Source: a virus (Duplodnaviria > Heunggongvirae > Uroviricota > Caudoviricetes). From it: a stretch of 32,646 nucleotides of DNA. Below, piece after piece: positions 3,767-32,646 of this stretch. The first letter of the stretch is position 1. Each line of letters begins with the position of its first letter. The stretch covers positions 64,001 to 96,646 of IMG/VR virus record IMGVR_UViG_3300037400_002787; one strand, 5' to 3'. Under the pieces are notes generated by a model. The model worked only from the letters and a program-made list of their open reading frames with translations, did no database searches and was not told the DNA's origin. The translations under genes and the position numbers were made by a program.

Positions 3767-3771
3767 GAAAT

Positions 3772-4461: not shown

Positions 4462-4471
4462 AGTTCAGTGT

Positions 4472-9575: not shown

Positions 9576-9583
9576 TGCTGTTT

Positions 9584-9617: not shown

Positions 9618-9624
9618 GGCTTGA

Positions 9625-9645: not shown

Positions 9646-9710
9646 GCCCGTGTGGGTTGCGGACAGACGAACAAAACTTGTAGCCACCGCGAACTAAGGA
9701 GCACAAGACT

Positions 9711-11687: not shown

Positions 11688-12920
11688 ATGGCGATAAACA
11701 TAAAGAATTATGTGGACATCTCCACCACGTTCCCTAGTGCGAATGTCGCAGGAAGGTCGTTTGGTGGTCTGGTGTTCACGGCGAAGGATGCCATAGAGCA
11801 GACTTCGGGTGATATGGCGGAGGCCTACGAGGCCTATATGGGTGGCGGAGTGACCTTCCTCACGCTTGAAGAGGTTGGACTCCTCTTTGGGACTTCCTCG
11901 GATGAGTACAAGTTCGCAGAGGGTTACTACGGTTACATTAGTCCGTCCGGTCGCTTCGCTTCCAGGATTGCATATTCCAAGATTTTTGACAACGAGACTC
12001 CGCTGGCGGCTTTCTCCCGAGTCAACAAGGTTACGAATCTTTTTGGTTCGTTCACATTCCTTTCCGTACCCAGAGGCGGAGACTCCACGAGCTCTGAGAC
12101 AGACGACCTAGAGTCTCTTAAGGCGGTAGCGCTATTCAACTCTACGCTCGATGCAAAGTATCTCTTTGTTGTGAATAGGGCTGTGGGCGACAAGACCACA
12201 GATGCCGTCATTACAGAGTGCGAGACGTTCAAGGACATCAAGGGAACCGTGTACATCTCCGGCAAGACCGATGTTTCCGCTTATATGCCGATGGCGATTC
12301 TCGGAAGCACGGATTACTCCAACGGACAGGTTGTGAACTTTATGTTCAAGCAGTTTGCTACCGAAGAGCCAACTGTGGAAGATGACAAGACCTATGCCGA
12401 CTTTAACAAGGTGTTTGTCAACTTCTACGGTCGTACCCAGACGAACGGACAGACGCTTGACTTCTACCAGAGGGGCTTCAATACGGACGGCACAGATACG
12501 GCGGTTTATTGCAACGAGATGTGGTTTAAGTCCATCTGCGAGACGGCTCTTATGAACCTTCTCGTGTCCCGTGAGAGACTTCCCGCCGATGCACTCGGTG
12601 TAGACCTTGTTAAACTCGAGGTGGTGGACTGCTGTGCCGATGCGATTCGCAACTCGATGTTCATGCAGAAGGAACTAACCGCAAAAGACATTCGCGGAAT
12701 CCGCGAACTCGTCGTTTCGACCGGCGGTGCGGAAGCCGATGTTGGTTCTATTGAGGCCGATATCTCCACAAAGGGCTACTCGGTATATGCTTACCTCTCC
12801 TCTATGGAGGACAATCAGAAGCTCGGACCTACAAGCGAGAAGGTAATCATCTACTACGTGTTCTACGGCACTGCGGATTCCGTCCGTTATATCAAGGGCG
12901 ACGACATACTTCTCAAGTAA
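11688..12920 (+). CDS. Contractile tail sheath protein (DUF3383-like)
   Basis: MAINIKNYVDI..FG..S.EYKFA..YYGY..MFKQF..NFYGRTQ..DFYQRG..YCNEMWFK..I.GDDIL; AGGAG SD. Confidence 0.85.
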   Translation: MAINIKNYVDISTTFPSANVAGRSFGGLVFTAKDAIEQTSGDMAEAYEAYMGGGVTFLTLEEVGLLFGTSSDEYKFAEGYYGYISPSGRFASRIAYSKIFDNETPLAAFSRVNKVTNLFGSFTFLSVPRGGDSTSSETDDLESLKAVALFNSTLDAKYLFVVNRAVGDKTTDAVITECETFKDIKGTVYISGKTDVSAYMPMAILGSTDYSNGQVVNFMFKQFATEEPTVEDDKTYADFNKVFVNFYGRTQTNGQTLDFYQRGFNTDGTDTAVYCNEMWFKSICETALMNLLVSRERLPADALGVDLVKLEVVDCCADAIRNSMFMQKELTAKDIRGIRELVVSTGGAEADVGSIEADISTKGYSVYAYLSSMEDNQKLGPTSEKVIIYYVFYGTADSVRYIKGDDILLK

Positions 12921-13379: not shown

Positions 13380-13393
13380 ATGTTGTCTTCCTG

Positions 13394-13466
13394 TCGGCGG
13401 ACGGGGCTTTAGATCGTCCGTCCGAGCAAAGCTCCCGCTCCTCTACAAAAAGGGGGCGGGAGTTTT
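13394..13466 (+). terminator. Two tandem hairpins after tube copy 1 (terminator/attenuator or RNA stabiliser)
   Basis: TCGGCGGACG..CGTCCGTCCGA (~13394-13426) and CTCCCGCTCC..GGGGGCGGGAG (~13432-13462) followed by TTTT. Confidence 0.6.
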
Positions 13467-13489
13467 GGCAATGAGAAAGAGAGAAAAAA

Positions 13490-13948: not shown

Positions 13949-14041
13949 TAGGCATCTATTTCACCATTTTGTCTTTTTCCTTTTGGGCAATACTTGCGGT
14001 AGGAATGCCGCAGAGAAACCCCCAAAGGAGAAATAAATAAA

Positions 14042-17600: not shown

Positions 17601-19065
17601 ACAGGGACTAACTCTTGGAGCGAGACTTGCTCGGTTTGCACGTAAAAGCGGAACGTCAATAGGGACTATACGTGATGCCCTTCTTTCTGATGAGGAAGTT
17701 TCAGAGATAGAGCGTAAAGAAGCCGCCGGCGAAGATTTAGATGAGGGTACAAAAGAGAAGTGGGAACAGTACAAAAAAGGTGGAAAGTATAAAGCTCGAC
17801 AGGCCAAGCAAGAGGCGGAGAAAAAAAATGTAGAACAAAAGAAGCAGCAGGAAAAAGAAGAGAAGGAGATAGATGAAGAACTGACACGGCGATATGAAGG
17901 ACCCGGTGAACTGTCTGGTGAGATTTCTGGAGACAAGAAAACTCTCACAGATAGAGATATAGAGGTAATGAGAAAAGCCAACGCGAAATACGGGGCCTTG
18001 GAGAAAGGATTCTCTGCTAATGAAATTTCTCAGTTTGAGGAAAACGAACAAAAGAGGAAGGAAACCTTTAGTAAAATTGGCCTTGGCGATGAAGATCAGT
18101 ACGAAGAGTTCAAGAATATTGAAGATAGAGTATTAAAAGGAGAGGATGTAGAAAAAGGTGAACTAGACTTTTATACCAAGACAAAGGAAAAACTCGATAA
18201 GGCTACCGTAAGAGCCAAAGCTACAGAGTATAAACCGCTGAACGAGGAGTATGTGCTGACGGCCGAAGAGGCCGCTGCTCGAGAAGCAACTTCTAAAAGT
18301 ATCGAAATTGGAGAAAAAGCAGGCGCGGAAATGAGGTCTCGAGGAGACCTTAACAAGATGTCCGATTTGAATAGGATTGATGACTTTGTAAAGAAGGGAT
18401 GGTCAAAAAAGAAGATACAACAGAATTTTGGGAAGGATAGATTAGAAGAATATGAAGCCGCTGTAAAAGTCGGCACATATGAAGACCACGAAGCAAAGCG
18501 TCAGGAAAAGGCGAGGGACAAGTTTGAAAAAGAAAACCGTGCTAGTCTCAAAGCCACTGGAATGAGCGATGAGAGTATTGAGCAAGTAATGACACAGAAA
18601 ATGGACGAATACGATGCCGAAGTTGAAAGGAAGAGAAAAGCCAAAGCGGATAGAGAAGCCGCACAAATGGAAAGGGAAAGAAAGAACGGTATAGGTAGTT
18701 CTGGTTTCCCGATAGATGAAGATGGTGGAACAATTGGCAGCAGTGAAGATGCTACTAGGATAATGCAAGAAAAGGAAGCGGGAGTTGCTCAAGTTGTAGA
18801 CAAACTTGAAGAAGTCGGAAGCGCTGCTGAATTTGCTGCATCTACGGCCAAGAATGCGAATGGAGAACCCGCAAGGGGCGACAATGGTGTAACAATCAAT
18901 ATGGGAGGGCAGAATATAACGCAGAACATACAGGGGACATACCCGATGGATCAAGACGGGATGAAGAGAGGAACACTCCAGGGGGCTGAAGAAATTTGTG
19001 AAATGGCAGTCCAACATGTAACCGATGCAGTCAACTCGATTGTGAAATCCTCGGGCTCTTACTGA
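14635..19065 (+). CDS. Tape measure protein
   Basis: 1476 aa, mostly helical and charged, after the chaperones; Gly-zipper hydrophobic stretch (~16494-16630); TTG start with AGGGAG SD. Confidence 0.85.
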   Translation: MRNRGSSSETEVLKSVFSAKSLSRGISNISNLFNRVGETANTASGQYFASREASINRTYESLTAELSKNIGKIKGASGKNIDDQLKKFLGDVRASGGSNIKTSELNRLMGELSKGIGKSAASMTGIEGQLARELTQSIRTVKKEVKEEGLSGYKGKSLKESTQKADINQKIDDGRAELTRAVRGFSKTIGDPAIKKQVDQIRGTFHRRLNTATSVEDKKKAYEEALRGFNKVKASTTNEGDKEQVDKIVDSFSEFKKGLFGTKSNLWAARLRAGFDRTTTALGAATKVLIPLKKTFDVGNAIFQQVNNKFNQFARTQMRIAGERGAFGRIMRGAGMDYSSMMSALGTGRRAGMDDREVVNKMVSMQEQLARARWGEGPMIENLGKWGLTPFDENGNMKDFNRVMIDISNKFNTLGSEMERLQFLSMQGFRPEQMEYVKNYAKDAKAWAELKKHPERMGVLEQSRYLDESGLYAKVDAATKIELKRRQMLNQNAIDEGVWEGLKRSLHPENWFFEDWTARKKGVESAKSEIAMEGLRKELERAREELRKNNQGVNKLSGNILNLDPSQLMGLALQGGAAQADIDNRGEQSSVYALRKLYAKELGLEDLRRVEERNKVYNSAIGVGGGALGGAAVGAIIGSVIPILGTTIGAILGAALGGTAGGVGMYSQHIFDIAEDGVNKHIEKLKSLRGQPDEIRKYLDENKIYGLSPEVVESKEFDDDKVASRYIQSGYRSGLYMEAQSLTNKNIDISKAHNYTDDRFYKANKQAAELRGEELSRERTVEAIARMGTGDETIGIDSETAYNYITYGLDKSSQEYKTKRFNKIGQIRGRWQKEKKKFTEKELQKAAEEEVEQDFKNTISPNIIRAAEQYQGVSKDREGTWRHAIKQAGLREGAFANGGERAIESLRKQIKTIEEVGVSERNSEEYSGLKKVLEILTTYGSKENFLQSSPDIKKMVFGDGEIPFAYKSLEEQKAEINRMISVGDERKSEQGLTLGARLARFARKSGTSIGTIRDALLSDEEVSEIERKEAAGEDLDEGTKEKWEQYKKGGKYKARQAKQEAEKKNVEQKKQQEKEEKEIDEELTRRYEGPGELSGEISGDKKTLTDRDIEVMRKANAKYGALEKGFSANEISQFEENEQKRKETFSKIGLGDEDQYEEFKNIEDRVLKGEDVEKGELDFYTKTKEKLDKATVRAKATEYKPLNEEYVLTAEEAAAREATSKSIEIGEKAGAEMRSRGDLNKMSDLNRIDDFVKKGWSKKKIQQNFGKDRLEEYEAAVKVGTYEDHEAKRQEKARDKFEKENRASLKATGMSDESIEQVMTQKMDEYDAEVERKRKAKADREAAQMERERKNGIGSSGFPIDEDGGTIGSSEDATRIMQEKEAGVAQVVDKLEEVGSAAEFAASTAKNANGEPARGDNGVTINMGGQNITQNIQGTYPMDQDGMKRGTLQGAEEICEMAVQHVTDAVNSIVKSSGSY

Positions 19066-19105
19066 CCGAATGGGCATACAATAGACAGAAAGGAGATGTC
19101 GCAAA

Positions 19106-19534
19106 GTGGCGGACTTTGAAAAAGACAACTTGGGCGGCAATGAATCCAATGCCGTTTATATAGCAATAAGAGGGAAACGTTTCTTACAGATATTTCCGAC
19201 TAACTACGTACAGAAAAACCACTGCACGATGATAGGCTCTCCTTCGGAAAAAGGGGTAATACAGTTCGACAACAAGGTAATCCAGCCTACAACCGTTCAA
19301 TTCACGGGAATTGTCAAGTCGTCGCAAAAAGACGTTTTCACTGACATTCGGGCAACGATGAAGCAGATTCAGCTTGAAAACATAATTTGCCAGTTCAAGT
19401 CGAAGGCCGGGAGAATAGACAATATGATATTGGAATCTATTGAGGAGATAGGGGAGTCCAGCCGGTATGATGGAATTGAAATTAAGGTGACTATGCAGGA
19501 ATATCTGGAGCACAATGTTACCCAGCAAAGTTGA
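19106..19534 (+). CDS. Baseplate/tube-initiator-like protein
   Basis: First gene after the tape measure; GTG start with AAGGAG SD; SPSEKG..FDNKVIQP pattern of this family. Confidence 0.6.
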   Translation: MADFEKDNLGGNESNAVYIAIRGKRFLQIFPTNYVQKNHCTMIGSPSEKGVIQFDNKVIQPTTVQFTGIVKSSQKDVFTDIRATMKQIQLENIICQFKSKAGRIDNMILESIEEIGESSRYDGIEIKVTMQEYLEHNVTQQS

Positions 19535-19885
19535 TTGAAGATGACACAGAGATATATAGAGAATGTCGAAGATCAGACAGTTAATCTGTCAATAAACGGG
19601 ACTTCATTCGTGTTCCATTTCTTCTCTTTTAGAGACCTTATGTATGTTGACATTTCGCAGAATACCAATAGCATAGTTAGTGGTAAGAGGGTAATGGCTA
19701 ATCAGTGGCTTCTTCCAAACTATGTTGCGGAAGGAATAGGCAATCTTCGTTTCGAGACATACAAGGCGGATGGAGACGACTATGTTTGGTATGAAGAATT
19801 CAATACAAAATTCCGTCTTGTCTCATATACTGATGAAGAAATAAAGCATATGGAAGAGACTTTAGAGGAACAACTATCCAATTAG
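19535..19885 (+). CDS. Small baseplate (plug-like) protein
   Basis: 116 aa; DQTVNLSING..MYVDI..IVSG.RV pattern and synteny. Confidence 0.6.
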   Translation: MKMTQRYIENVEDQTVNLSINGTSFVFHFFSFRDLMYVDISQNTNSIVSGKRVMANQWLLPNYVAEGIGNLRFETYKADGDDYVWYEEFNTKFRLVSYTDEEIKHMEETLEEQLSN

Positions 19886-19892
19886 GGGTATA

Positions 19893-20849
19893 ATGGCAGG
19901 AGTACCAATATATTTTGGAAGAAGATACCGACTCTCTCTTCATATCCCTGGGCAAGAGCCCAAAGTATTTGAAGTCCAGGCTGGCTTGCCTGCAATGGAT
20001 ATAAAGTTTGATGTCACCTATGCAAGAGGGCAGACAGCAAGAGAAGGAACTATTTCTATACTAGGTTTGGGCTACAAGACCATTCACGAGTTCATAGCAT
20101 TGGCGGGAGAGACTAGGGGGTATGCAATGAGCCGCCTAATTAGGGTCAAACTTGAAGCGGGTTATTTCACCGCGGCGGGGATGGTTGAGATATTGAATGG
20201 ATTCGCATGGTATGCAACAGTCACTTCACCTCCTCAGATGTGGCTAAACATCAACGTTTCTGAGTATAATCCTCTTGGAGCAAGGAAAGTATCCTTGGGA
20301 ATTACAGAACCAATGACTATGCGAAATATTCTAGAAAAAGTAGCATCAAGGTTCACCGAAGTAGAGAATGATGGAGGGGAATCTGTTGCATTTGCCGTTG
20401 TGGATAAAACTCAGGATTTAATCGTAGACAATAGTCAAGATTTAATAGGCCCAATAGATTTTGGCGGCGATGTATCTCTTGCAGAAGCAATCCAAATACT
20501 TAACCAAAACTTGTCCGATGAGGTTATGGTGATTCTTCGTTCACGAAACATCGACAAGACAAGAGTAATAGAGTGTCTAGACAAGAACAAACGGAAAGCA
20601 GCCCGTGGAGAAGTTAGGGTAGATAAGGATAATGGTCTCCTTACTGTGACGGGAATTGATGTGGTAAACGGATGCGTTACGACCTTTCTAGATGGGAGGT
20701 GGGAAGACGAACTTTCTCATCTTATACTTCAGAGCGAACTAAATAAGCAGGCCAACGGGCGATACTACATAATAAAAAAACAGTATGTTGGGCATTTTAT
20801 GGGGCAGGAGTGGTATGTAAGATACTCCTGTTCGGCAAGGGAAAACTAA
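19893..20849 (+). CDS. Baseplate hub protein
   Basis: 318 aa; V.LEAGY..F.G..LTVTGI..L.SELN..ANG.YYI..W..C; directly upstream of the spike gene. Confidence 0.7.
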   Translation: MAGVPIYFGRRYRLSLHIPGQEPKVFEVQAGLPAMDIKFDVTYARGQTAREGTISILGLGYKTIHEFIALAGETRGYAMSRLIRVKLEAGYFTAAGMVEILNGFAWYATVTSPPQMWLNINVSEYNPLGARKVSLGITEPMTMRNILEKVASRFTEVENDGGESVAFAVVDKTQDLIVDNSQDLIGPIDFGGDVSLAEAIQILNQNLSDEVMVILRSRNIDKTRVIECLDKNKRKAARGEVRVDKDNGLLTVTGIDVVNGCVTTFLDGRWEDELSHLILQSELNKQANGRYYIIKKQYVGHFMGQEWYVRYSCSAREN

Positions 20850-20850
20850 T

Positions 20851-22605
20851 ATGAAAGAAGAAGAGGCTCCAATAACAGAAGCTGATTCCCTAAATGCAGC
20901 GCACGATTTACGGGCCGCACTTATAAATCATGACATCGGGATGCTACGCTCACTAGGTATATGCATACCGGTGTGTGTCTATTCCTATGATAGTAGTACA
21001 AACATTGTAACAGTAATGCCTTTGGTCAAACAGGCATATTATCAAGGGAAGTGGAACTACAAAAAAAACGAATGTATATTCAAAGTACCTGTAAGAAACA
21101 TTCAGCATGGCGGATTCACAATAAAAATGCCCATCTTTGTAGGAGATACTGGCTGGGTATTCTCAAGTGATAGGGATACAAAACTATTGAGGCAGGATGG
21201 GGCTCTGACAAACTCTGTGTTAGAAGGGAATCGGCAAACTGCTATCATAGAGAATGACTATCAACAAAAGCCGAACACTCCAACATTGCACTCCTTTGTT
21301 CATGGCTTCTTTATACCCGACAACTGGGGTTCATTTGAGACTAGGAGATACAAGGACAACCCCGACATAGCGGTAGGAGAGGGGCTATACATAGGCTCGT
21401 CGATCGACACGGACGACCAGAGGGACGATGTAAACGAAAAGAAGTTCCAGCACGGAGATGCCTACGAGAAGAAGACCACTTCCTCTCTCGTGCTTCTTTC
21501 AGGGGGCGGGGCTTCTCTCGCATCTTCATCTGACAAGGAGACAAACCAGAAAGCCCATGTTGTCGTAGACAGAAACAAGGTGGAGACGATGGCGGAAGAC
21601 CGAGCTCGGGAAAAGTCCTCCTCTCTTGTTCTCGACACCGACAACGGAATCACCATACGGCAGGACGACGAGGAGAATAGACGGCATTTCGTCTGCTCGG
21701 TGAACAATGGTTCTTTTCTGATGAGAATGCTTGAAGGAGACAAGATTATGAGCTTTAGTTTCATAGACGGAAAGCTCAATGTCTCGACAACGGACGAAGT
21801 GAACGTAAACTTTGGCGGCAACACCAATTTCAGATGTTCGGGAGATGTCAACGTCACCGGCGAGAAGAATATGAACGTCCATGTGCAGGGCGATATGAAT
21901 GCGATGGTATCCGGTGATGCACGAGTGACAACCCCAAATGCTAGGGTAGTGGCGGAGAAGACCGCCTCCGTGTCTGCGGAAACGATTTCCGCAACTGCAT
22001 TGAAGACAGCAAATGTCAATGCGGGAGAAACAGTTAATGTCGGCGCTGTAAAGACTACAAACATCAATGCTGGAGAGACGGTTAACCTCGCCGCTGGCAA
22101 GAAGATAAACGTGACCGCGCCAGAAGAAGTCACGATAGTCACGGCAAGCAAGACAACAGTGATGGCAAAGAAAAAGGCGGCACAAATCCTAGTTACGACT
22201 CTATCAAAAGATTCTACAATAGATGTTGTGGCAGAAGGAAAGAGTACAAAATTAAATGTGACAATGAAAGGCAAGGAGTCTCCGATAAGCATAACTACAG
22301 AGAAGGAGAAGTCTCCGATATCCATAGTTTCACAGGGTAACGAATCTTCAATCCAGATAGAATCACAAGGCAGTAAGTCGGACATCAAACTGTCTGCTGC
22401 GAACAATGTTAGCATTGAAGCGAAGAAGGATGCGGCCTTGACGGCAGGGGGGAACATTCAGGTTGCCGCCAAGGGAAAGGTTGAAGTGTCCGGTTCCAAG
22501 ATAATAGAAAACGGAACGGTTGAAATCAACGGAAAACTGTCCCTAAACAACCAGTCCTTCGGTATCGTAGAGCAAAACAAGGTCAAATACTGGATAGTCT
22601 CGTGA
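20851..22605 (+). CDS. Central spike (gp138/gpV-like OB-fold N-terminus) with extended beta-helix
   Basis: IPVCVYSYD..VTVMPLV..HGGFTI.MP..VGD.GWV..SDRD..GFFIPD; long C-terminal 8- and 11-residue beta-strand repeats. Confidence 0.8.
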   Translation: MKEEEAPITEADSLNAAHDLRAALINHDIGMLRSLGICIPVCVYSYDSSTNIVTVMPLVKQAYYQGKWNYKKNECIFKVPVRNIQHGGFTIKMPIFVGDTGWVFSSDRDTKLLRQDGALTNSVLEGNRQTAIIENDYQQKPNTPTLHSFVHGFFIPDNWGSFETRRYKDNPDIAVGEGLYIGSSIDTDDQRDDVNEKKFQHGDAYEKKTTSSLVLLSGGGASLASSSDKETNQKAHVVVDRNKVETMAEDRAREKSSSLVLDTDNGITIRQDDEENRRHFVCSVNNGSFLMRMLEGDKIMSFSFIDGKLNVSTTDEVNVNFGGNTNFRCSGDVNVTGEKNMNVHVQGDMNAMVSGDARVTTPNARVVAEKTASVSAETISATALKTANVNAGETVNVGAVKTTNINAGETVNLAAGKKINVTAPEEVTIVTASKTTVMAKKKAAQILVTTLSKDSTIDVVAEGKSTKLNVTMKGKESPISITTEKEKSPISIVSQGNESSIQIESQGSKSDIKLSAANNVSIEAKKDAALTAGGNIQVAAKGKVEVSGSKIIENGTVEINGKLSLNNQSFGIVEQNKVKYWIVS

Positions 22606-23882
22606 TTTCCAAATCGGCATACTATGAAGCGATGGACTACACAAATCTATATAGTTTTCTAACAAGTACGGGGGTGATTGTGCCGGATGACAAGTCTGTA
22701 CTCCTCGGTATACAGACAAAGTTTCAGGAGATATTCGGCACCGACATAGACCTTTCTGCCGAAACCCCAGTAGGCAGGCTCATCGAGGCCTTTGCCGTCG
22801 TTGTCAAGTCCACTCTAGGAGTTACCGCTCAGACGGCAAACCAGTTCAATGTGAATGAGGCAACGGGAATATATCTAGATGCCATAGCCCAGATTTACGA
22901 CCTCAAGAGAATCGCCGGCACGAAGACCAAGATAACAATCAAGTGTACGTTTTCCGACAACCCTAGCGGGACAAGTACAATCCCTGCGGGGGCTCTTGTC
23001 ATGTGTAGTAGCAATGGGGCTATTTTTAGGATTGATGCCGCAATACCAAACAACGGAGAAATAGACGACGATGGAAAGTATTATGCGATGGGTACGGCAA
23101 CGGCAATAAAGGCCGGCCCCATAGTAACCCCGATTGGCACCGTAGATTCCATCCAGACGGCGGTAATGGGGTGGGTTGGAGTCACTAATGTGGCCCCTAC
23201 ATATACAGGAACGGACATAGAGACCGATGAAGCCTTCCGCAAGAGGATTGTAGAGTCGAGACCAATAGGCGTCGGTTTCAACTCCCACCTCGTCTCGGCT
23301 TTGAACCGTCTCGATGGAGTGTACTCCAATTGTGTTCTCGAAAACAACACCGGAACTCCCATTGTAAAGAAGGACGTGATAATCCCGCCCCACTCCATTT
23401 TCGTGGCCGTGGACTGCATTGAGACAGAAGAACTTCTGCAAAGCATCGCATTAGAGGTGTCTCGGGCAAAGCCACTAGGCACCGGCATGGTGAATTCCAA
23501 TGTCAAAGGGGGTACCCTCTTTCAGAGGTCCGTGTCATATGGCTACAACAACGGCTACTCTCAGACTATTGATTTCTACAAGGCGGACAAGACGGCAATT
23601 CTCGTAGACCTAACCTATTCATATGGCAGTTACACTGGCGATAACATAGAAGGAGACATCGCCACAGTGATTGCGGAATACTTGTCCACTATTGGAGTTG
23701 GAGGCACTGTCTACGGTACGATGATAGCCAACAAGCTTATCAACAGTTTGAACATCGGAGTGGGGTCGGTGTGGCTTCAGAAATCTGGAAGCAAGCAGGC
23801 GGCAGATGCAGTAGTGGAGATGATGGGCTACGAAGTCCCATATTCACTTCCTGAACACATCACTAGCACCGAAGTGGGATGA
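22602..23882 (+). CDS. Baseplate J-like wedge protein (true start may be ATG 22632)
   Basis: TGVIVPD..FG..DLS.ETP.GRLIE..N.A.GIYLDAI..GW.GVTN..G.D.ETDEAFR.R typical of baseplate J-like proteins. Confidence 0.9.
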   Translation: MISKSAYYEAMDYTNLYSFLTSTGVIVPDDKSVLLGIQTKFQEIFGTDIDLSAETPVGRLIEAFAVVVKSTLGVTAQTANQFNVNEATGIYLDAIAQIYDLKRIAGTKTKITIKCTFSDNPSGTSTIPAGALVMCSSNGAIFRIDAAIPNNGEIDDDGKYYAMGTATAIKAGPIVTPIGTVDSIQTAVMGWVGVTNVAPTYTGTDIETDEAFRKRIVESRPIGVGFNSHLVSALNRLDGVYSNCVLENNTGTPIVKKDVIIPPHSIFVAVDCIETEELLQSIALEVSRAKPLGTGMVNSNVKGGTLFQRSVSYGYNNGYSQTIDFYKADKTAILVDLTYSYGSYTGDNIEGDIATVIAEYLSTIGVGGTVYGTMIANKLINSLNIGVGSVWLQKSGSKQAADAVVEMMGYEVPYSLPEHITSTEVG

Positions 23883-23898
23883 TTGAGGGGCGATTGCT

Positions 23899-25638
23899 AT
23901 GAAGATACATACCATAGACAATTCGCTCAATAACCTTGGCAAGACCGTGCTCTGGCAGTACGACCGTGCCTATAGGCTTCTTTCATTGCTAAAGCACATG
24001 CAGGTGTTGTATCACTGTGCCGTTGAACAGTTCTGGGATTTCTGGACTACGAAAGTCCTATCCATAGACACCTGCGGCAGTCTCGGTTGTTCGGTCTGGG
24101 GGTTGCTGCTTGGAGTCCCAAGACCGGTAATAGTAGAGAATGGTGAGGAAAGACTAATCGCAACTCCCGTGTATCGCAGGATTCTCAAGGGGGCTTTCTA
24201 TCTTATGAAAGCCAGCAGTTCCTTTGAGGACATTCTTGGCTATCTAGAGATTGTGTTCGGAATAGGTGGAGACGACAACCTATCGAAGTGGAGTGTCTAT
24301 GTAAGTGAGTATGGGTGGACTACGAATGTTGCGGAACTGAATGGGGAATACCAGCCAAAGGTTTCCTATCAGGCGGGTGATGTTGTATGGTACGAAAATG
24401 ACAATTACAATGGGAACTGGAAGTTCCGAAGCGACATAAGATATGTCATTAGGGGAGAGTGGACGGGAAAAGGCGAACCGCCCGAAACGATTGACATACC
24501 AGACCCCGAGAACCCGGGGCATACCATAACGGTACCCTTTGTCATAAACAATTCTTGGGATTCTATATCCGCCTATGTGGAAAGGACTACCGAGCGAGTA
24601 GCCACTCCCGACACCCTCATTCTGAAACTATACGACCCGGAGGGCATTTGCCGCAAGATAGGGGGAGCCCCGAACAACTCCCTGTCCATTTCCGTCTCCT
24701 ACGAGTTTGGCGACACAACGATAACCGCCGTTGCAACAAGACGGCGAAAGTGCGGTATTTCCTTGGTAGACAACAATGATATGTCTATGAACTATGGGAA
24801 GTCGGAGTTCTACGACGAGATGCATAAGGATCAGAAGTTCCTGTTTGAGCAGAAAGCCGAAGAATTCTGTCCATTCCCGCTTGGAGTGAAGACAAACGAG
24901 CCGGTAGGGAACTGGGTGTTCGGTCTAGAAGGACAGACTAATGAACTGTACCAAAGCGGAGTTGCCTACTCCAAAGGATACATCTTCGGGTATGAGGATG
25001 AAAACGGCGATGGGTGCAACTGGGTGTGTAAGGAAGACATCTCCGCAAAAGCGAACACTTCTTTTGATGCGATTCGGACAAGCATAGAGAAATCGGCAGA
25101 CGGAGCCCCATTCGTGGACGGTCTGGTAGAGGACATACCAGTATATGTTTCGGTTAGAAATAGAATAACCCTATCGGTTAAAGCCATGTCTCAGCAGAAT
25201 TCAGTGGCTACGATTATAAGCCCCTATTCTCTAGCAGAGGGGCTTGACAATGGCATATACAAGATATTCCGCAACACCTCTGACAAGTATCTCTTCGTTT
25301 GTCATAGTTCCCAGAGCGAATGGGCGGGCGGCAATCCTTATGCCGCCAATGCTAGTGATGTGATTTTCGTGGACGAGCCTACAGAAGAAAATGTAGCCAA
25401 GGGGATAGGCGAGATATGCAAGAGGAATGGTTTTCCCGTGGTAGGATACAACGAAGCAACCCATTTTATCCCGAGTGTTCAGTATTATCAAGGAATGGTG
25501 GTAAAGGTTGGAAATACTGAGCGTGTGGTCATACGTAGCGGTAGATGGGATAGCGAAAGTGATTTCCTCAAAAATTCTGTTCCGCAGAAGAAGACATGTC
25601 TGCACGAATACTATCCATATAAGGTTCTTTCACCATAA
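23899..25638 (+). CDS. DUF2612-like baseplate wedge protein with insertions and C-terminal extension
   Basis: LWQYD.A.RL.SL..FW..W..VLSIDT..G..VWG.LLG.PR..YRRILK, later LVDNNDMSMNY; contains three Tyr-rich CBM5/12-like motifs. Confidence 0.75.
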   Translation: MKIHTIDNSLNNLGKTVLWQYDRAYRLLSLLKHMQVLYHCAVEQFWDFWTTKVLSIDTCGSLGCSVWGLLLGVPRPVIVENGEERLIATPVYRRILKGAFYLMKASSSFEDILGYLEIVFGIGGDDNLSKWSVYVSEYGWTTNVAELNGEYQPKVSYQAGDVVWYENDNYNGNWKFRSDIRYVIRGEWTGKGEPPETIDIPDPENPGHTITVPFVINNSWDSISAYVERTTERVATPDTLILKLYDPEGICRKIGGAPNNSLSISVSYEFGDTTITAVATRRRKCGISLVDNNDMSMNYGKSEFYDEMHKDQKFLFEQKAEEFCPFPLGVKTNEPVGNWVFGLEGQTNELYQSGVAYSKGYIFGYEDENGDGCNWVCKEDISAKANTSFDAIRTSIEKSADGAPFVDGLVEDIPVYVSVRNRITLSVKAMSQQNSVATIISPYSLAEGLDNGIYKIFRNTSDKYLFVCHSSQSEWAGGNPYAANASDVIFVDEPTEENVAKGIGEICKRNGFPVVGYNEATHFIPSVQYYQGMVVKVGNTERVVIRSGRWDSESDFLKNSVPQKKTCLHEYYPYKVLSP

Positions 25639-25657
25639 ATGAAGGATTTTTTGACTT

Positions 25658-26467
25658 ATGGCAACTTCTGAAAAAATACCTTTTGTTAGCGTTCCTTTTG
25701 CCGACCAAGACCAGACCAAGGTCGCAGACCTAGATTTTCTAAAATCGGGCGTTACTTCTTCGATGCTGATACCCACCGAACAAGGAGGTAGGAAGTTTTC
25801 CAGAAGCATGCTAAACGGCATAGGATACTTTGCTACCCTCGGAGGATTTCTGGATAGAATCGGCTATCCATATGGAATAGAAAAAGACCGCGGTGCAGAT
25901 TTCAATGGCTATCCCAAGGGGGCTATTCTCATTTCCGAAGACGACGACTATGTTAGAGAGTATGTAAGTCAGGAGGACAACAACACGAATCCGCTTCCGC
26001 AAGAAGCGACAGATGGCACATACAAAGGGGACGAGCACTGGAAACCGACTCTCCCGCCCGTGGCGGACTTTTTCCCCGATTATTCCACATACACATCGAA
26101 GTTCTTTAAAGATGTTGTTGGAACGGGTACTGTTCAGTATACCATTGACGAAGATGGTTGGTATGAGTTTTCCGCCTCTTTCTCTGGGGGGGATTGGCCG
26201 GCGGAAGCAACATACAACAATATTCTTTATAGGGCTACCTGCTCGGTACTTCTGAATTCTTCCACAGAGATTTGTAAACTAGACGGAAGATTTTCTAGCA
26301 AGCTCACCGACGAAAGCCTTAATAACAGAGTATATCCCATCGTAATGTCCACCGTCCCCCTTAAGAAAGGAATGCTAGTTTCAATGAACTATAGGTTTTC
26401 TACGGAGCAGACAAGTGGATACGGTGTAAGACTCAGAGTAAAGCGTTGGGGGGCCTCTGTCCTATGA
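25658..26467 (+). CDS. Short tail-fibre-like protein
   Basis: N-terminal PFA..P..GG..R..LNGI..GYPKGAIL..YVS..DNN.NP..W matches the baseplate-attachment region of fibres in this family; short beta-rich C-terminus. Confidence 0.65.
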   Translation: MATSEKIPFVSVPFADQDQTKVADLDFLKSGVTSSMLIPTEQGGRKFSRSMLNGIGYFATLGGFLDRIGYPYGIEKDRGADFNGYPKGAILISEDDDYVREYVSQEDNNTNPLPQEATDGTYKGDEHWKPTLPPVADFFPDYSTYTSKFFKDVVGTGTVQYTIDEDGWYEFSASFSGGDWPAEATYNNILYRATCSVLLNSSTEICKLDGRFSSKLTDESLNNRVYPIVMSTVPLKKGMLVSMNYRFSTEQTSGYGVRLRVKRWGASVL

Positions 26468-27516
26468 CAATAGACCAAGCAAATGTTCTGGCGGACAGGA
26501 TTAGGGAAGCTCCGCAACTATATGACACCCCGCCCAACTTGTCGGTAGGGCTGTCTCCTACCTATACTCCCAACCTATCGCAGCAGTATCCCTGGATTTC
26601 CCATGTAATCTACCCTAGAGACCTTTCTCTCGGTTTTGAAAGGCGTTCAAACATCTATTATTCACCACTCGGATTTTCTAAGAGAGCATATTCTTCGAAG
26701 ATAACGCAGTGGAAAGAAACCGTGCTAGATGATGTCCACGGGACCGAGCCGCGTTTCGTGACTCTTGACGACATACGTATGATGGCATATCTTGGACTTG
26801 AGTATGCAAGGGCTAAGTTGGAAGGATGGAGGTATCGGTTTGGATATCTAGGTCCTAATGAAGCTAACGATATAAAACGGGGAAACATAGTCCGCACAGA
26901 AGATGGACAAAGGTATATCAAAAGGTATAGCAACAATTCAATACCGCCGCCTACTGTGAAGTACTGGATTCCGATGATTAGGCAGAGTGGGTTTGAAGTT
27001 CCTAGCGAAGGGGCTTGGGGTCTCCCTGAAGACTACGAAGAATCTTCGAGTCCCGTTTCCGACCTTCTGTTGATAGATTCCATAGAGGGCGCGGATGACA
27101 TCGTGACCATATTGCCTTATTCTAAGTCCTCTATAGTGATGAGCGGAGGCTTCTGCATAATACTGAGTCCCGAGACTAGTCTGGATGAGAATAACCTCGG
27201 GAATTCCTTCGTGGTTTACCAACAGAGAGTGCAGCAATTCTTCTCGGTCTGGGAATATATTATTGATTCCTACGGACGAGTGGTTGGGCGAAGGAATATT
27301 ATGGACACGGCAGAGAAGCCGACAGGCGATGTTCGCTATGATACGTCCTATAAGATTGATGGACAAGGAATGAAGTTCGCCCTTAAAAAGGGGGTCTCAT
27401 ACAATGTGTTCGTCAAGTTTGACAATGCGATGATAGGAAGTGCTGACAAGATTGGAAGCAGGACGCTTGTATCCTTTCTCCGAACCGGAACGAGGACGCT
27501 TGCTCCGCGTTTCTAA
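26464..27516 (+). CDS. Hypothetical tail-associated protein, possibly a diverged fibre paralogue
   Basis: Same frame as track ORF 26446-27516; ATG 26464 overlaps the upstream stop (ATGA), suggesting translational coupling. Confidence 0.6.
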   Translation: MTIDQANVLADRIREAPQLYDTPPNLSVGLSPTYTPNLSQQYPWISHVIYPRDLSLGFERRSNIYYSPLGFSKRAYSSKITQWKETVLDDVHGTEPRFVTLDDIRMMAYLGLEYARAKLEGWRYRFGYLGPNEANDIKRGNIVRTEDGQRYIKRYSNNSIPPPTVKYWIPMIRQSGFEVPSEGAWGLPEDYEESSSPVSDLLLIDSIEGADDIVTILPYSKSSIVMSGGFCIILSPETSLDENNLGNSFVVYQQRVQQFFSVWEYIIDSYGRVVGRRNIMDTAEKPTGDVRYDTSYKIDGQGMKFALKKGVSYNVFVKFDNAMIGSADKIGSRTLVSFLRTGTRTLAPRF

Positions 27517-27565
27517 ATAGCCATCTCGTTCCGTTTCCCCTTTTTCCATTTCGGCATTATATACC

Positions 27566-30500
27566 ATGAAGACACTAGGAAGAAATGCCGACAACGACTT
27601 GTATCTTGAAGCGGGTGGACTAGCCATTTTACACGATGCCGATGCTCAGTGTGCCGTCATAGAGTCTGTTCTCCAGACGCAGAGGGGCGAACTCCAGTTC
27701 GATGAGGATGGTGGCATAGACTACTTCGGCACGGTTCTGCAGAATCCTAGATATATTGACTTCTGGGCGGGTCAGGTTCAGTCAAGAGTAGAAGCATTAA
27801 GTTTTGTCATGTCTGTGGAGGACTTCCAGTACAGATTCGACCGTGAAACGAGCACTCTCTACTGGTCGATGACTGTGATTACCACTGACAATGTTAGGCT
27901 CGACCTACAGAACAAGAAGACCGTCATAGAAGGTCGTCCCGGCATAGATGTGGACTGGAGCAACGTCTACGACAAGCCCGCCGGAATCGACGAGACCCTT
28001 GAGATGGTTGCGGACATGAGGGATGAGGCTCAAGACCTAAATGAACTTGATGCTAGGAGTACTCTGACAACAGTCAAGGACACCCTCAATAGAGTGGTTT
28101 TCGATCCCAACAACAAGAAGTATGCTGAAAGCCGCCAAATAAAGTTCAAATTCGCCGGAGTGCCGCTAGGTACTGTAATAGACTTCAGCAACCTTTCTTT
28201 TGGTCTGCAGAACACGGGTACGGCGACAGAGGAGAGGTATGTACCTTTCACCGTGGAGATTTCGGACGGCACTAAGAGAAGAAACCTTACGAATATGAAC
28301 GGCTCCGCTCTTAATGCGGAAACGAACGATGTCTGGTTTGTGGATGAAAATGCAAAGCCAGACGGAGAGGGCCACTTTCCTCCTACCCAGCGGCATACCA
28401 TCATGGTCGGCGGCACGATGGAGATTACCATTCGTGGCAACATCACATCGATCAAGAGCCAGAATGACGAAAAGCCGATATTCCTAAGGAGCGACGGAAC
28501 TCCGTTCCCTTACTTGGTGGGATTTACTGTAGGGTCTAGAATTCCACTTGAAACCATAGGGAGTGGGGCTTTCTGCGGACTCAAGAACCTCCAGACCATA
28601 GTATGGAACGAGCCCGACAACTCGACATACAACATCACGTTCGGAGACAGGGCTTTTGAGGGATGTGAATCCCTAACGGGGCTTTCATGGCTTCCCTATC
28701 GTCTAAAGACAATGGGCAACCGGTGCTTTAAGTCCTGCAAGGGAATCCTCAGCCTTGCATCATCAATCAAGACAAACAACAACACGACTTACATCAGGGG
28801 ACTTTCCACGACACTTGTGGAGGGGATACCCGAGAGCGCTTTCGAGGGATGCACGTCGCTTGGCTCGGTGGAGTATCTTCCGCCCTCGCTTGTTGCCCTA
28901 GGCAATAGGTCTTTTGCTGACTGCACTTCACTACTTGACATCGACGCACTGCCCGACACAATACAGTCCATTGGAGACGAATGCTTCGAGGGATGCTCGG
29001 GGATGCAGAAGATTCTCTATATGCCGACTTCCCTGAATACAATCGGGACAGGAAGTTTTAGAGGATGTACTTCGCTTCGCTCCCTTTTCATACCTAATAC
29101 CGTTGCCAACATAGGAAGCGAAGCCTTTGCCGGCAATACCGCCCTCACGAATGTTTTGTGCGAGAGGGTGAATGCACCCACAATCGACGAAACCACTTTT
29201 GACCAGGAAAGTCTGGACATATATGTGCCAGAGGGCTCTCTCGCCCAATACAAGGAAGCGAATGGCTGGAAGAAATACTGGGATTCTGAAAGCGACACGG
29301 GCACTATTTACGAATATGGGAAAGCCGAATTTAGGCTAGACAATGTACCGAGCGGCACGATTCTGCTTGGTAACACTAGCGAGATAGTGTCTTCTTCCAT
29401 ATGGTCTGTAGAGTACTGCGGAACCGGCGAGAGACCGCGGAGGTTCGAGTCCACGACTACCGCACTGCCGACATATGCCTTTGATGTTCAACCCAACTAC
29501 AACAATGTAGCAGGAACGGCGCTAGTGGTGATTACTGGCTACATAAGAAGTATGTCCGCTTTCTCGGAGGCATACCCGATGCTGGCAACCGCCGAAAACT
29601 CCAATCCATACCTAACAAGCATCTCTCTAAAACTGTCGAGTTCTCTGAATACGATTGGGGATTATGCTTTCGCTCAGTGTACAAATCTCGCAACCATTTC
29701 TTCCGACGAGAGCGACAATCCGTTCAGACTCGGTAACAGTGCTTTCTGGGGCTGTTCGGCGCTAGATAGCATGGAGTGGCTGAACTGCTATCCTAATCTT
29801 GGTATCCTTGAGCAGCCCGAGGACGAAGAGAGAGCATACTACCCCGCCTTTGGCGACCGATGCTTCTATGAGTCCGGGATAACGGCTATCTCATATCCGT
29901 CCGCTCATGTAGAAGAACTTCCCCCTTATTGCTTTGCCAAGACGAGAATCGCAAATCTGGAGGGAATCAAATCCTCAGTTTTGAACTCTCTGGGAGAACA
30001 CTGCTTTGAAGGATGCGAAAGTCTTACGACCATCTCCGATCTTCGCGACACGAGGGTGACGAAGATTCCAGCCTACGGATTCGCAGGCTGCACTTCGCTT
30101 GCAAGTCTTGACGGAGTTGACAACATCTCGGAGATGGAAGAGAATGCCTTCAACGGATGTGTGTCGCTTTCTACCATCGGCAACCTCTATCAGGCAACCA
30201 ACCTCACCGCACTGCCGGCACATTGTTTTGAAAAATGCACGGGACTCCAAGACCTAAACGGCATAGAGAGGATTTCAGAACTTGGAGAGTATGCATTCTA
30301 CGGGTGCTCCGGCCTCACTACATTGAATAGGATTGAACTGTCTCCGATAGACACGATTCCAGCCTACTGCTTTGCCAATTGTACCGGATTGACTATTCTG
30401 GTGGGCTGCTATTACATCAAGAATATAGGCGAAGGGGCTTTCTTTGGTTGTACGGGACTTCTTGCACCTTCGGGACTCGGTGCTTCCATAGTTTCCATCG

Positions 30501-32646
30501 GGGCTTCCGCATTCCAGAACTGCACGGGGCTGAAATTCTTCTCGTGCATTGCTCAAACAGTTCCTTCCGTCAGTCCGACCGCATTCAACGGAGTACCCGA
30601 AATAGCTCGAACCCTATATGTCAGAGACGGGATGGAATCCGCCTTTTCCAATGATGCGAATTGGAAAGCTGCTTTCCGCACGGTTTTGTCGAGGACGATT
30701 AGGATACGATATGAGAACATTGGCGGCACAACACCGGATGCCGTGAACATCAATAGCGATTCCGTTGCTTCCACGACCGTCAAGGGGTTGATTGTAGACG
30801 GCGACAATGCAATTCCGGGTGTATGGTTTGTAGACTATGGAGACGGCAGTGAACTCGTCAAACGTTACGATACTGAGAAACTTCTGCCTCACACCTACTC
30901 AGCGAGGGGTGGCTATGATGTAACTCTCTTTGGCGACATTGTGGAAGTCAAGGGAGCGGACGAGACATACTCCGAGACTGCCCACGGAGACCCCGAATCC
31001 GTTACCGTAAGTTCGTTCCTTTATCCTTTGGGCCGCTATGCATCCTCGGTTTCAATTAGTTCTCCATATCTCTCAAAGATAGGTGATTTCTGCTTCAATG
31101 GATATGGACGAACCAATGGAAACCTAGAGGTGTCCATAACGATGGAAGATAGCGGCACAATCGGTGCATATGCCTTTGCCAAGACGGTTGGGATACTCGG
31201 AGACATGTCGGTCTGCAATGCGGCCATTGTGGAGCCCTATGCATTCTACAAGAGCGGTTTGACATCTTCGGCCGCTTTCGTGTCCATAGTAGAAACAAAG
31301 ACCGGGGCTTTTGCCTACAATGAGAATCTGTTAGACCTTCTTGGTTTTTCTTCATTGAATACAATAGGCGAAAAGACCTTCGAGGGATGCATAGCCCTGT
31401 CGACCACTACGGGACTTTCTAGCACGGAGACCATCGGAAAGAGTGCATTTGCCGGATGTACGGGACTGACGACCGTAAGAGACTTTGGCGGCGGTCTAAC
31501 CAAAATAGAAGAGAGTGCATTTGCCGGATGCAACAACATTGCTACCATCTTCATGGCGCTGGAGAACCCTCCTACCTCTAACGGAAGGCTATGGAATGAT
31601 GGTGGAACGCTTGCGGAAAACGTCTTTGAGTCCGCAGTATTTGAGAATGCGATTCTTTATGTTCCCGTTGGAGCGGAAGCGAACTATGCGAACACCCCTG
31701 CATGGAACAGGTTTGACACTCAGGTGGATGGGCAAAGTCGTATCCGTTCGCGTTCTGTCATCTTCACGTTCAAGAACATAGTTGCAAACGATACCATTCC
31801 CAATGGCATATGCCTAGTGACTTCAACCGGTTCGTGGACAATCTCGTATGGCTCGCAGCAGACCAAGACCTTCACGGCCGGAACCGACATTCCCGTGCCC
31901 GAATATGTCTTCAACTCGCCCGATACGGCGAACGGGCAGATTGAAATCAAGATAAGCGGTGCTGTGACTGCCATTAAGGGAGTAGTAAAGAATAGGGACA
32001 CGAACCAATCAGGCACTCAGTCCATATTTGGCGATACGGTTGGAAGGAAACTAGTTTCCATATCGTCTTCGTCGGCTATGGAAATTTCCACGATAGGTGA
32101 AGGAGCTTTTTGGAACTGTTCGTCGCTTGAAACCGTCAAGACGATGCCCTCGGTGCAGACGATAGGGTATGGTGTCTTTCAGGGGGCAACCTCGCTATCG
32201 GATATTTCCGGTCTGTCCGAGGTAGTGGAGATAGATGCCTATGCCTTTAGCGGATGCTCTTCACTGAAAAGTCTATATGGACTGTCAAAGGTATCCACCA
32301 TAGGCGAATATGCATTTAATGGATGCGGGGTGAAGACGATTGATGCACTAGGTACGGGTATTTCTTCAATAGGCGCTTTTGCCTTTAGGGGTTGTAGCCT
32401 GAATGAAGTCCAGATGTTCGCTGAAAATCCTCCCACAATCGCCGCCACGACGTTCGACGAAACGGTGTTTCTATCCGCGCCGCTATATGTGAGGACAAAG
32501 GTGATTCCCGAATATTCTTCCGCAGATGTCTGGAGCAGATTTGCGAATATAAGGAGCAGATATCTGGAATTCAGCCTCGTCGGATGCCCGTCAAATCTCA
32601 CGGTAGCCGGCGAAGTGGGCAAGATACAGTCCAATACCTATTGGGT
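27566..32646 (+). CDS. Giant (>1690 aa, 3'-truncated) protein: gp25/W-like baseplate domain fused to tandem beta-sandwich/BspA-type LRR modules
   Basis: Translated by hand from ATG 27566; absent from the track because no stop occurs before the window end. N-terminus MKTLGRNADNDLYLEAGGLAILHDADAQCAVIESVLQTQRGELQFDEDGGIDYFGTV is W/gp25-like. Dozens of LxxIGxxAFxGCxxL repeats follow in four blocks, each closed by a PxxxxxxF..LYV..W cap. Confidence 0.9.
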   Translation, partial: MKTLGRNADNDLYLEAGGLAILHDADAQCAVIESVLQTQRGELQFDEDGGIDYFGTVLQNPRYIDFWAGQVQSRVEALSFVMSVEDFQYRFDRETSTLYWSMTVITTDNVRLDLQNKKTVIEGRPGIDVDWSNVYDKPAGIDETLEMVADMRDEAQDLNELDARSTLTTVKDTLNRVVFDPNNKKYAESRQIKFKFAGVPLGTVIDFSNLSFGLQNTGTATEERYVPFTVEISDGTKRRNLTNMNGSALNAETNDVWFVDENAKPDGEGHFPPTQRHTIMVGGTMEITIRGNITSIKSQNDEKPIFLRSDGTPFPYLVGFTVGSRIPLETIGSGAFCGLKNLQTIVWNEPDNSTYNITFGDRAFEGCESLTGLSWLPYRLKTMGNRCFKSCKGILSLASSIKTNNNTTYIRGLSTTLVEGIPESAFEGCTSLGSVEYLPPSLVALGNRSFADCTSLLDIDALPDTIQSIGDECFEGCSGMQKILYMPTSLNTIGTGSFRGCTSLRSLFIPNTVANIGSEAFAGNTALTNVLCERVNAPTIDETTFDQESLDIYVPEGSLAQYKEANGWKKYWDSESDTGTIYEYGKAEFRLDNVPSGTILLGNTSEIVSSSIWSVEYCGTGERPRRFESTTTALPTYAFDVQPNYNNVAGTALVVITGYIRSMSAFSEAYPMLATAENSNPYLTSISLKLSSSLNTIGDYAFAQCTNLATISSDESDNPFRLGNSAFWGCSALDSMEWLNCYPNLGILEQPEDEERAYYPAFGDRCFYESGITAISYPSAHVEELPPYCFAKTRIANLEGIKSSVLNSLGEHCFEGCESLTTISDLRDTRVTKIPAYGFAGCTSLASLDGVDNISEMEENAFNGCVSLSTIGNLYQATNLTALPAHCFEKCTGLQDLNGIERISELGEYAFYGCSGLTTLNRIELSPIDTIPAYCFANCTGLTILVGCYYIKNIGEGAFFGCTGLLAPSGLGASIVSIGASAFQNCTGLKFFSCIAQTVPSVSPTAFNGVPEIARTLYVRDGMESAFSNDANWKAAFRTVLSRTIRIRYENIGGTTPDAVNINSDSVASTTVKGLIVDGDNAIPGVWFVDYGDGSELVKRYDTEKLLPHTYSARGGYDVTLFGDIVEVKGADETYSETAHGDPESVTVSSFLYPLGRYASSVSISSPYLSKIGDFCFNGYGRTNGNLEVSITMEDSGTIGAYAFAKTVGILGDMSVCNAAIVEPYAFYKSGLTSSAAFVSIVETKTGAFAYNENLLDLLGFSSLNTIGEKTFEGCIALSTTTGLSSTETIGKSAFAGCTGLTTVRDFGGGLTKIEESAFAGCNNIATIFMALENPPTSNGRLWNDGGTLAENVFESAVFENAILYVPVGAEANYANTPAWNRFDTQVDGQSRIRSRSVIFTFKNIVANDTIPNGICLVTSTGSWTISYGSQQTKTFTAGTDIPVPEYVFNSPDTANGQIEIKISGAVTAIKGVVKNRDTNQSGTQSIFGDTVGRKLVSISSSSAMEISTIGEGAFWNCSSLETVKTMPSVQTIGYGVFQGATSLSDISGLSEVVEIDAYAFSGCSSLKSLYGLSKVSTIGEYAFNGCGVKTIDALGTGISSIGAFAFRGCSLNEVQMFAENPPTIAATTFDETVFLSAPLYVRTKVIPEYSSADVWSRFANIRSRYLEFSLVGCPSNLTVAGEVGKIQSNTYW

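Follow-up and report, generated by a model that had tools for sequence, protein, structure and literature searches.

A sheath-initiator-type domain heads a giant leucine-rich-repeat protein in a clade of uncultured myophages

Results

A giant open reading frame at the end of the window

The DNA analyzed here (the window, 32,646 nucleotides) corresponds to the final 32.6 kb of a virus contig of 96,646 bp in IMG/VR (IMGVR_UViG_3300037400_002787; CheckV completeness, 38%). It ends in a giant open reading frame (ORF), P0001, whose N-terminal domain is of the type found in phage sheath initiators, the gp25/W-like baseplate proteins, and whose remainder is a chain of leucine-rich-repeat (LRR) modules. 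The ORF starts at an ATG at 27566 that is common to all homologues, which begin MKTLGRN. A preliminary description of the window had placed a W-like domain of about 115 amino acids (27566-27916) at the head of an LRR protein of more than 1,690 amino acids, and we find the same arrangement, with the domain ending at 27925. The gene and its parts are as follows:

27566..32644 (+): giant ORF P0001, 1,693 amino acids, 3' end open at the contig end
27566..27925 (+): sheath-initiator domain (gp25/W-like, PF10934 type), residues 1-120, from profile, AlphaFold2 (AF2), and Foldseek comparisons
27926..27970 (+): linker, residues 121-135, predicted flexible at 125-128 and ending in W-x-x-[IV]-Y-D-K-P
27971..28150 (+): helical arm, residues 136-195 (helices 141-156, 167-179, and 184-189), predicted by AF2 with a local confidence score (pLDDT) of 80-94
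28151..29365 (+): module 1, beta-sandwich, BspA-type LRR, and cap, residues 196-600 (LRR_5 E value, 1e-32; cap motif at residue 552)
29366..30715 (+): module 2, beta-sandwich, LRR, and cap, residues 601-1050 (LRR_5; cap motif at residue 1017)
30716..31765 (+): module 3, PKD-like sandwich, LRR, and cap, residues 1051-1400 (weak PKD_4 and LRR_5; cap motif at residue 1364)
31766..32575 (+): module 4, beta-sandwich, LRR, and cap, residues 1401-1670 (LRR_5; cap motif at residue 1640)
32576..32644 (+): beginning of module 5, where the ORF is cut by the contig end

P0001 is colinear, junction included, with residues 1-1714 of a 3,387-amino-acid homologue (P0002), so that about half of the giant gene is missing from the window. 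The LRR_5 family (PF13306) matches throughout the extension, with 113 bits in residues 1-600 (E value, 1e-32) and 275 bits in residues 600-1693 (E value, 9e-83) against a cut-off of 27.7, and Pfam also gives a weak PKD match in the third spacer. Full-length relatives contain 17 to 18 LRR_5 stretches, arranged as a chain of about ten modules that each consist of a beta-sandwich, a BspA-type LRR, and a cap. The AF2 model of residues 121-620 (pLDDT, 85; predicted template modeling [TM] score, 0.80) shows the helical arm, a beta-sandwich, and an LRR solenoid. When module 1 was compared with the Protein Data Bank (PDB) by Foldseek, it matched 4FDW, 4FD0, 4FS7, 4GT6, 4CP6, and 6MLX with E values of 1e-9 to 1e-5; 4FDW and 4FD0, both Bacteroides "putative cell surface proteins," rank first, and other gut-bacterial LRR proteins, pneumococcal PcpA, and TpLRR are also among the matches. 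By analogy with these proteins, the LRR chains are likely adhesive and bind host or other surfaces. No signal peptide is visible in the sequence at the N terminus of the giant ORF, which is the initiator domain.

We also computed regional identity between the giant protein and seven relatives:

Initiator domain (1-120): 57-83%, the most conserved part
Helical arm (121-195): 41-68%
Modules: 30-69%
Last 300 residues of full-length proteins: 17-27%, with 48% for one close pair

In sequence terms, identity falls from anchor to tip, as it does in receptor-binding proteins whose anchor is conserved.

Assignment of the N-terminal domain to the PF10934 branch

Residues 1-135 alone match the Pfam family Sheath_initiator (PF10934) over the full length of the profile, with an E value of 0.025 and 15.1 bits (cut-off, 32.9), and match PHROG 120 (phrog_120, "baseplate wedge subunit") with an E value of 3.6e-11. 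An exhaustive phmmer search of 1.84 billion representatives returned 203 relatives, and a family profile (A1) built from 90 of them matched the solved initiators Pa193 gp35 (9B45_G; 4e-16), Pam3 gp21 (7YFZ_X; 1.1e-15), and E217 gp34 (8ENV_H; 5e-15), with phi92 gp139 at 2.2e-10 and weaker matches to Bas63 and others. A hidden Markov model (HMM) of free-standing initiators scored the giant ORF in its own contig at 1.7e-35, and the near-invariant residues of the family are retained in both fused and free forms. When residues 1-340 were searched against GenBank phages by tblastn, only the first ~106 residues matched, the targets being ~115-amino-acid "gpW-like/baseplate wedge" genes of Vibrio phage BT-1011 and Yersinia phage P744.

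The AF2 model made with the 90-member alignment has an overall pLDDT of 89.8, with values of 91-98 in residues 1-120. It contains helices at 24-37 and 61-76 and strands at 81-92, 97-106, and 111-120 (pLDDT, >90), followed, past residues 125-128, by the three helices of the arm. In this model, residues 1-120 form a LysM-like alpha/beta core plus a C-terminal beta-strand "handshake" element. A Foldseek search of the PDB with the model placed sheath initiators at ranks 1-23, except for rank 12, an unassigned Geobacter "putative tail lysozyme"; the matches include Pam3 gp21, E217 gp34, phiTE, T4 gp25, diffocin, XM1, TssE, and Afp9. E217 gp34 superimposes on the model with a target-normalized TM score of 0.82 and a root mean square deviation of 2.3 Å.

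The Pfam family GPW_gp25 (PF04965) gave no match to the giant ORF, and in the relative G002 (described below) it gave only an E value of 0.044. Since GPW_gp25 itself gives no match, we assign the domain on sequence grounds to the PF10934/Pam3 gp21/E217 gp34 branch of the gp25 superfamily and not to PF04965. The preliminary view that the N-terminal domain is gp25/W-like is thus upheld by profile and fold, but membership of GPW_gp25 itself is not.

The canonical sheath-initiator slot is empty

The tail module upstream of the giant gene contains the following features:

11688..12920 (+): tail sheath (DUF3383/E217 gp31 type), presumed partner of the initiator (PF11863, 2.1e-46)
14635-19065 (+): tape measure
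19106-19534 (+): Dit-like tube initiator (Pfam Dit_like)
19535-19885 (+): plug of the Pam3 gp18 type (Pfam Pam3_gp18)
19893-20849 (+): hub of the E217 gp41 type (Pfam E217_gp41)
20851..22605 (+): central spike, 584 amino acids (OB-fold N-domain and DUF2345 beta-helix; Pfam)
22602..22605 (+): empty canonical slot, where the stop of the spike gene overlaps the start of J (GTGA, 4 nucleotides)
22602..23882 (+): Baseplate J-like wedge protein, 426 amino acids, the equivalent of Pam3 gp22 (Baseplate_J, 7.5e-14; phrog_6, 3e-41)
23899..25638 (+): second wedge protein (DUF2612/Phage_Wedge1), the equivalent of Pam3 gp23 (PF11041, 1.4e-7)
25658..27516 (+): two fibre-like genes, 269 and 356 amino acids, between the wedge genes and the giant gene

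The order in the window is therefore tape measure, tube initiator, plug, hub, spike, nothing, J, wedge, fibres, and giant gene. In phage Pam3, gp17 is the tube initiator, gp18 the plug, gp19 the hub, gp20 the spike, gp21 the sheath initiator, gp22 and gp23 the wedge, and gp24 the fibre (PMC9942802), and gp135 to gp139 of phage phi92 follow the same order (PMC13450770). The tube-initiator, plug, and hub order in the window agrees with Pam3 gp17-gp19. Genes homologous to the initiator domain lie exactly between spike and J in Pam3 (gp21), phi92 (gp139), BT-1011 (gp10), and P744 (ORF056). In the window, there is no room for a gene between spike and J, because the two overlap by 4 nucleotides, and the initiator domain is encoded 5 kb downstream of this slot, after the fibre genes. 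A W domain hidden in the spike or in J was considered and rejected: the Pfam map of the spike consists of the OB-fold and DUF2345 regions, and a six-frame HMM search found no such domain in either gene. The position of the initiator gene is a habit of the family and not a functional requirement, and relatives of about 190 amino acids have moved likewise.

We found no second initiator in the 96.6-kb contig with PF10934, PF04965, phmmer, or the family profile. IMG/VR contains three close relatives with 79% identity in the domain. One of them, G002 (251,769 bp), carries terminal repeats and is scored by CheckV as 100% complete, and another close relative is a 223-kb record; in these two, the family profile and both Pfam models match only the start of an open frame of 3,705 or 3,644 amino acids. 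In these searches with the family profile, PF10934, and PF04965, a second initiator was absent from G002 and from G001, a relative classed as a provirus. In addition, a six-frame search of the whole G002 genome (hmmsearch --max) with an HMM derived solely from initiators of ~115-140 amino acids that stand free matched the giant frame with an E value of 4e-36, and the next best match had an E value of about 5. The point of the preliminary description that spike and J abut with no W-like gene between them is therefore borne out by the 4-nucleotide overlap and by the filled slots of Pam3, phi92, BT-1011, and P744. A separate W-like gene elsewhere, which that description had named as a refutation, is absent from the 96.6-kb contig and from the complete 251.8-kb relative. 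The giant ORF probably encodes the only sheath initiator of this phage.

An alternative is that the fused domain is a former initiator that now serves only as a docking module, with a real initiator too divergent for the profiles. Unassigned genes do occur between spike and J in two relatives (192 amino acids at L020:7172-7750 and 406 amino acids at L019:3502-4722), and part of the baseplate block of the window has no family assignment (the 356-amino-acid gene). However, the slot holds no gene at all in the window or in two related contigs (L004 and L014), and the 192-amino-acid protein was ruled out as a hidden initiator, with an hhalign probability of 0.6% and no Pfam match. The fused domain also keeps the conserved residues of the family, is the most conserved part of the giant protein, and is scored at ~1e-35 by the HMM of free-standing initiators, and all solved contractile systems place one protein of this fold at this site (PMC13433997). 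We consider a hidden initiator unlikely.

The fusion recurs in independent clusters and contigs

To locate related loci, we used a narrower alignment (A2), which found them where a search with the single protein had found none. In 20 clusters (representatives at 50% identity), the domain occupies residues 1-135 of proteins of 3,378-3,985 amino acids, with a domain identity of 50-81%. Five further clusters carry the domain on proteins of 1,719-2,653 amino acids, and shorter entries inside the giant clade run colinearly into module 1 and look like contig-end fragments. An independent Logan contig (L004) has the same ten-gene order and ends in the 3,387-amino-acid protein, the complete relative (L014) shares this order, and in all, the fusion and this order are found on four further contigs from Logan and IMG/VR. 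The positions of the fibre-like genes are likewise filled in L004 and L014.

These data bear on whether the fusion could be an assembly or sequencing artifact, such as a lost stop codon or a chimera between a small W gene and an LRR gene. Three facts would suit an artifact: the window comes from a metagenome contig, the best-matching public run is probably the source of that contig, and the contig stops inside the gene. Against this, the ~20 clusters come from many samples and have lengths of 3,378-3,985 amino acids, the four further contigs share the gene order, P0001 and P0002 are colinear over the junction, and the divergence among related contigs (50-81%) excludes one common systematic error. 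An artifact is therefore excluded, its probability being very small; the preliminary description had named a sequencing error as a possible cause and had proposed a search for homologous fusions, which are plentiful.

Two genes near the fusion in these relatives are recorded here as separate observations. In L004, the closest relative, positions 20733-22466 encode a second LRR_5 protein (>578 amino acids, incomplete because the contig ends there), two genes downstream of the fusion of 3,387 amino acids. In L014, the giant gene is directly preceded by a 422-amino-acid ORF on the minus strand (8597-9865), in a block whose other genes are on the plus strand; this ORF may be a mobile-element gene.

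Relocation and the helical arm appear older than the LRR chain

Clusters of 183-198 amino acids consist of the domain, a W-x-x-I-x-D-K-P motif, and the helical arm. One of these proteins (P0027, 188 amino acids) aligns with residues 1-177 of the giant ORF at 42% identity, arm included, and the linker motif W-x-x-[IV]-Y-D-K-P is kept in the giant and the ~190-amino-acid forms. In their contigs, the ~190-amino-acid genes sit at the end of the baseplate/fibre block, with spike and J adjacent. A maximum-likelihood tree of 148 domains, which has only a midpoint root and leaves many deeper forks open, places the giant forms in one clade (support, 98/92) that is sister to a ~190-amino-acid clade (96/95), and both lie inside a larger clade that holds another ~190-amino-acid form. 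Because the ~190-amino-acid forms are already relocated, relocation would predate the giant fusion. The simplest history suggested by the tree is that the gene moved from the spike-J slot to the end of the baseplate/fibre block and gained a helical arm of ~70 residues, and that the LRR modules accreted later.

By tree and domain content, fusions of adhesin repeats to the initiator domain arose several times independently. A separate clade (P0108, P0131, and P0142; 1,693-2,519 amino acids) combines an N-terminal initiator domain with LRR_5 and PKD regions, and the P0131 gene follows fibre genes on a 260-kb contig. In an 895-amino-acid protein, LRR_5 and Listeria-Bacteroides repeats precede a C-terminal initiator domain. 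In P0141 (958 amino acids), six InlB B-repeats (~850 amino acids) precede a C-terminal initiator domain, and the gene occupies the canonical spike-J slot of a Pam3-like tail module (GCA_024712465.1, 13.3-kb contig, 2306-5182). The presence of this fusion in the canonical slot argues strongly that a fused domain can still be a working initiator.

As a separate observation, in a phage with a 188-amino-acid relocated initiator (L006), genes for RRXRR and HNH proteins (73-1281 and 13147-14391; 402 and 414 amino acids) bracket the baseplate block, which is followed by a gene for a PT-HINT protein.

The remainder of the window

Nearly all genes of the window are on the plus strand. By their sequences, the structural genes are those of a myophage of the Pam3/E217 type. 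Pfam assigns, among the head genes, a DUF2213 protease/scaffold, a cement protein, the major capsid protein, a DUF4054 adaptor, and an E217 gp29-like gateway protein. The first of the two fibre-like genes (269 amino acids) matches the tail fiber family phrog_12796 with an E value of 1.9e-5, and the second (356 amino acids) has no match. A megablast search of window positions 19000-28000 against GenBank phages gave no match. The public run that shares most sequence words with the window (99%) is a bovine gut metagenome, probably its source; other runs share 5-8%, and no RNA run was among those matched.

Two other genes lie near the head genes. A complete TnpB gene (8264-9535, plus strand; 423 amino acids with HTH_OrfB_IS605, OrfB_IS605, and Cas12f1-like TNB domains) separates the major capsid gene from the head-tail genes and lies in a patch of low GC content (0.41, versus ~0.5). 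Directly upstream of the protease/scaffold and capsid genes is a gene for a protein of 1,415 amino acids with an FtsK/SpoIIIE ATPase domain (window 8-3766, plus strand; whole gene, G000:C1:63519-67766).

Discussion

Sheath initiators are treated as small, buried, and invariant parts of every contractile injection system. Our analysis suggests that a clade of uncultured ~250-kb cattle-gut phages made the initiator the root of an adhesin of ~0.4 MDa. At least three other lineages appear to have attached adhesin repeats to either end of the initiator domain, and therefore both initiator termini can probably reach the tail exterior.

In solved structures, the N-terminal part of the initiator clasps the wedge triplex, its last strands join the N- and C-arms of the first sheath ring, with six initiators per tail, and the initiator ring widens on wedge opening, which starts contraction (PMC9942802, PMC13450770, PMC13433997). 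By analogy, we think it likely that the giant protein takes the six initiator positions between the wedge and the first sheath ring without being cleaved, with its LRR modules forming six long adhesive chains. Each chain would emerge past the last handshake strand by way of the flexible linker, with the helical arm resting on the wedge like the C-terminal arm of phi92. The LRR modules would then form flexible, fast-evolving chains that leave the tail at the sheath-baseplate junction, six per virion because sheath initiators are known in six copies, and these chains would remain covalently tied to the ring whose expansion starts contraction. We infer uncleaved incorporation into the virion, the copy number of six, the adhesive function, and any triggering role.

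Several points weigh against this architecture and against the giant ORF as the only initiator gene. The phages are uncultured. The genome that contains the window is ~38% complete, with the gene cut at the contig end, so that "sole copy" rests on a relative. The single-sequence match to PF10934 lies below the curated cut-off, and membership of the family rests on the family profile and the fold. The LRR chain would add ~380 kDa per subunit, six times over, at a tightly packed junction with no solved precedent, and the longest solved initiators have about 210-235 amino acids. Finally, the floppy, conserved linker (residues 121-135) could be a processing site.

This last point leads to the alternative that cleavage of the fusion near the linker, or its synthesis in two forms, leaves the baseplate with an ordinary small initiator, perhaps with the arm, and that the LRR part is set free, attaches at another site, or occupies only a subset of the six positions. 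AF2 predicts a flexible linker (pLDDT, <50 at residues 125-128) between conserved flanks, and the free ~190-amino-acid forms show that the domain plus the arm is a working unit. In addition, P0006 (170 amino acids; L018:294-806) is 78% identical in the domain and departs from the family exactly after the linker into an unrelated tail of ~50 amino acids, so that it could be a split or recombinant form. However, P0006 lies on an 857-bp scaffold and may be a chimeric assembly. Programmed frameshifting was dropped as a probable mechanism, because no slippery heptamer or out-of-frame stop at the linker is conserved in the five loci compared; a +1-frame stop at codon 120 is not conserved in L015. 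No protease motif was recognized at the linker, and 10 kb is held in frame in ~20 clusters, which would be unneeded if the parts acted separately. We regard processing at the linker as the main alternative but an unlikely one and favor the uncleaved protein in the initiator positions.

If the uncleaved chains do extend from the initiator ring, binding could couple directly to the contraction trigger. Tension on the chains, or their ordering on the host surface, might act on the trigger itself and provide a route from receptor to sheath that bypasses the relay from fibre to wedge; we put this forward as a speculation that is quite unlikely to hold. If it were true, the independent adhesin-initiator fusions in several myophage lineages would reflect selection for such a shortcut.

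The proposed architecture would make the initiator an added attachment point for host-binding appendages, beside the wedge periphery, the collar, and the capsid, and the site could interest those who retarget engineered contractile systems (Photorhabdus virulence cassettes [PVCs] and pyocins). For annotation, it suggests that a giant "LRR surface protein" of a gut virome can be an essential part of the tail and that, where a myophage seems to lack a W/gp25 gene, the gene may hide inside a fibre-like one.

Comparison with known systems

In the full-text literature, in which coverage of subscription journals is incomplete, we found no published fusion of an initiator or gp25 protein to LRR, BspA, receptor-binding, or other adhesin repeats. 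The closest known proteins are Pam3 gp21 (7YFZ), E217 gp34 (8ENV), Pa193 gp35 (9B45), and the PF10934 family, which share sequence family, fold, and tail module with the domain described here. In contrast to the giant protein, which carries the domain at the head of more than 1,693 amino acids encoded after the fibre genes, the Pam3, E217, and Pa193 initiators are free proteins of 108-125 amino acids encoded in the spike-J slot. T4 gp25, P2 gpW, TssE, and Afp9 (PF04965) share the superfamily fold and the presumed role at the sheath-baseplate junction but, unlike the giant ORF product, are small, single-domain, and free-standing.

In phi92 (gp139, 211 amino acids) and phage 812 (gp115), the initiator carries a C-terminal arm or an extra domain and in this respect resembles the protein described here. 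The arm of phi92 makes contact with the wedge and is rearranged on contraction (PMC13450770, PMC13433997), and the ~190-amino-acid forms and the helical arm of the giant protein may have a comparable role. Unlike the LRR chain, the phi92 and 812 extensions are about 90-110 amino acids long, lie inside the baseplate, and are not adhesins, and phi92 gp139 matches our family profile over the initiator domain only (profile positions 7-118) and not over the arm.

With BspA-type LRR proteins (BACOVA_01565, 4FDW; BACCAC_03700, 4FD0; PcpA, 4CP6; TpLRR, 6MLX), the extension shares the repeat family, the module fold, and the preceding beta-sandwich. Those proteins, of ~200-400 residues, carry export signals and reside on the bacterial surface, whereas here about ten such modules follow a phage baseplate domain. 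Phage receptor-binding proteins and the Goslar DUF7941-LRR proteins also have a conserved N-terminal attachment, divergent distal modules, and LRR-based host recognition (PMC13742148), as is proposed here. In those proteins, a dedicated fibre-attachment module at the baseplate periphery serves as the anchor, while the anchor in the giant protein would be the sheath initiator itself. Known initiators span 108-235 amino acids; the giant ORF encodes at least 1,693, and its relatives reach 3,378-3,985.

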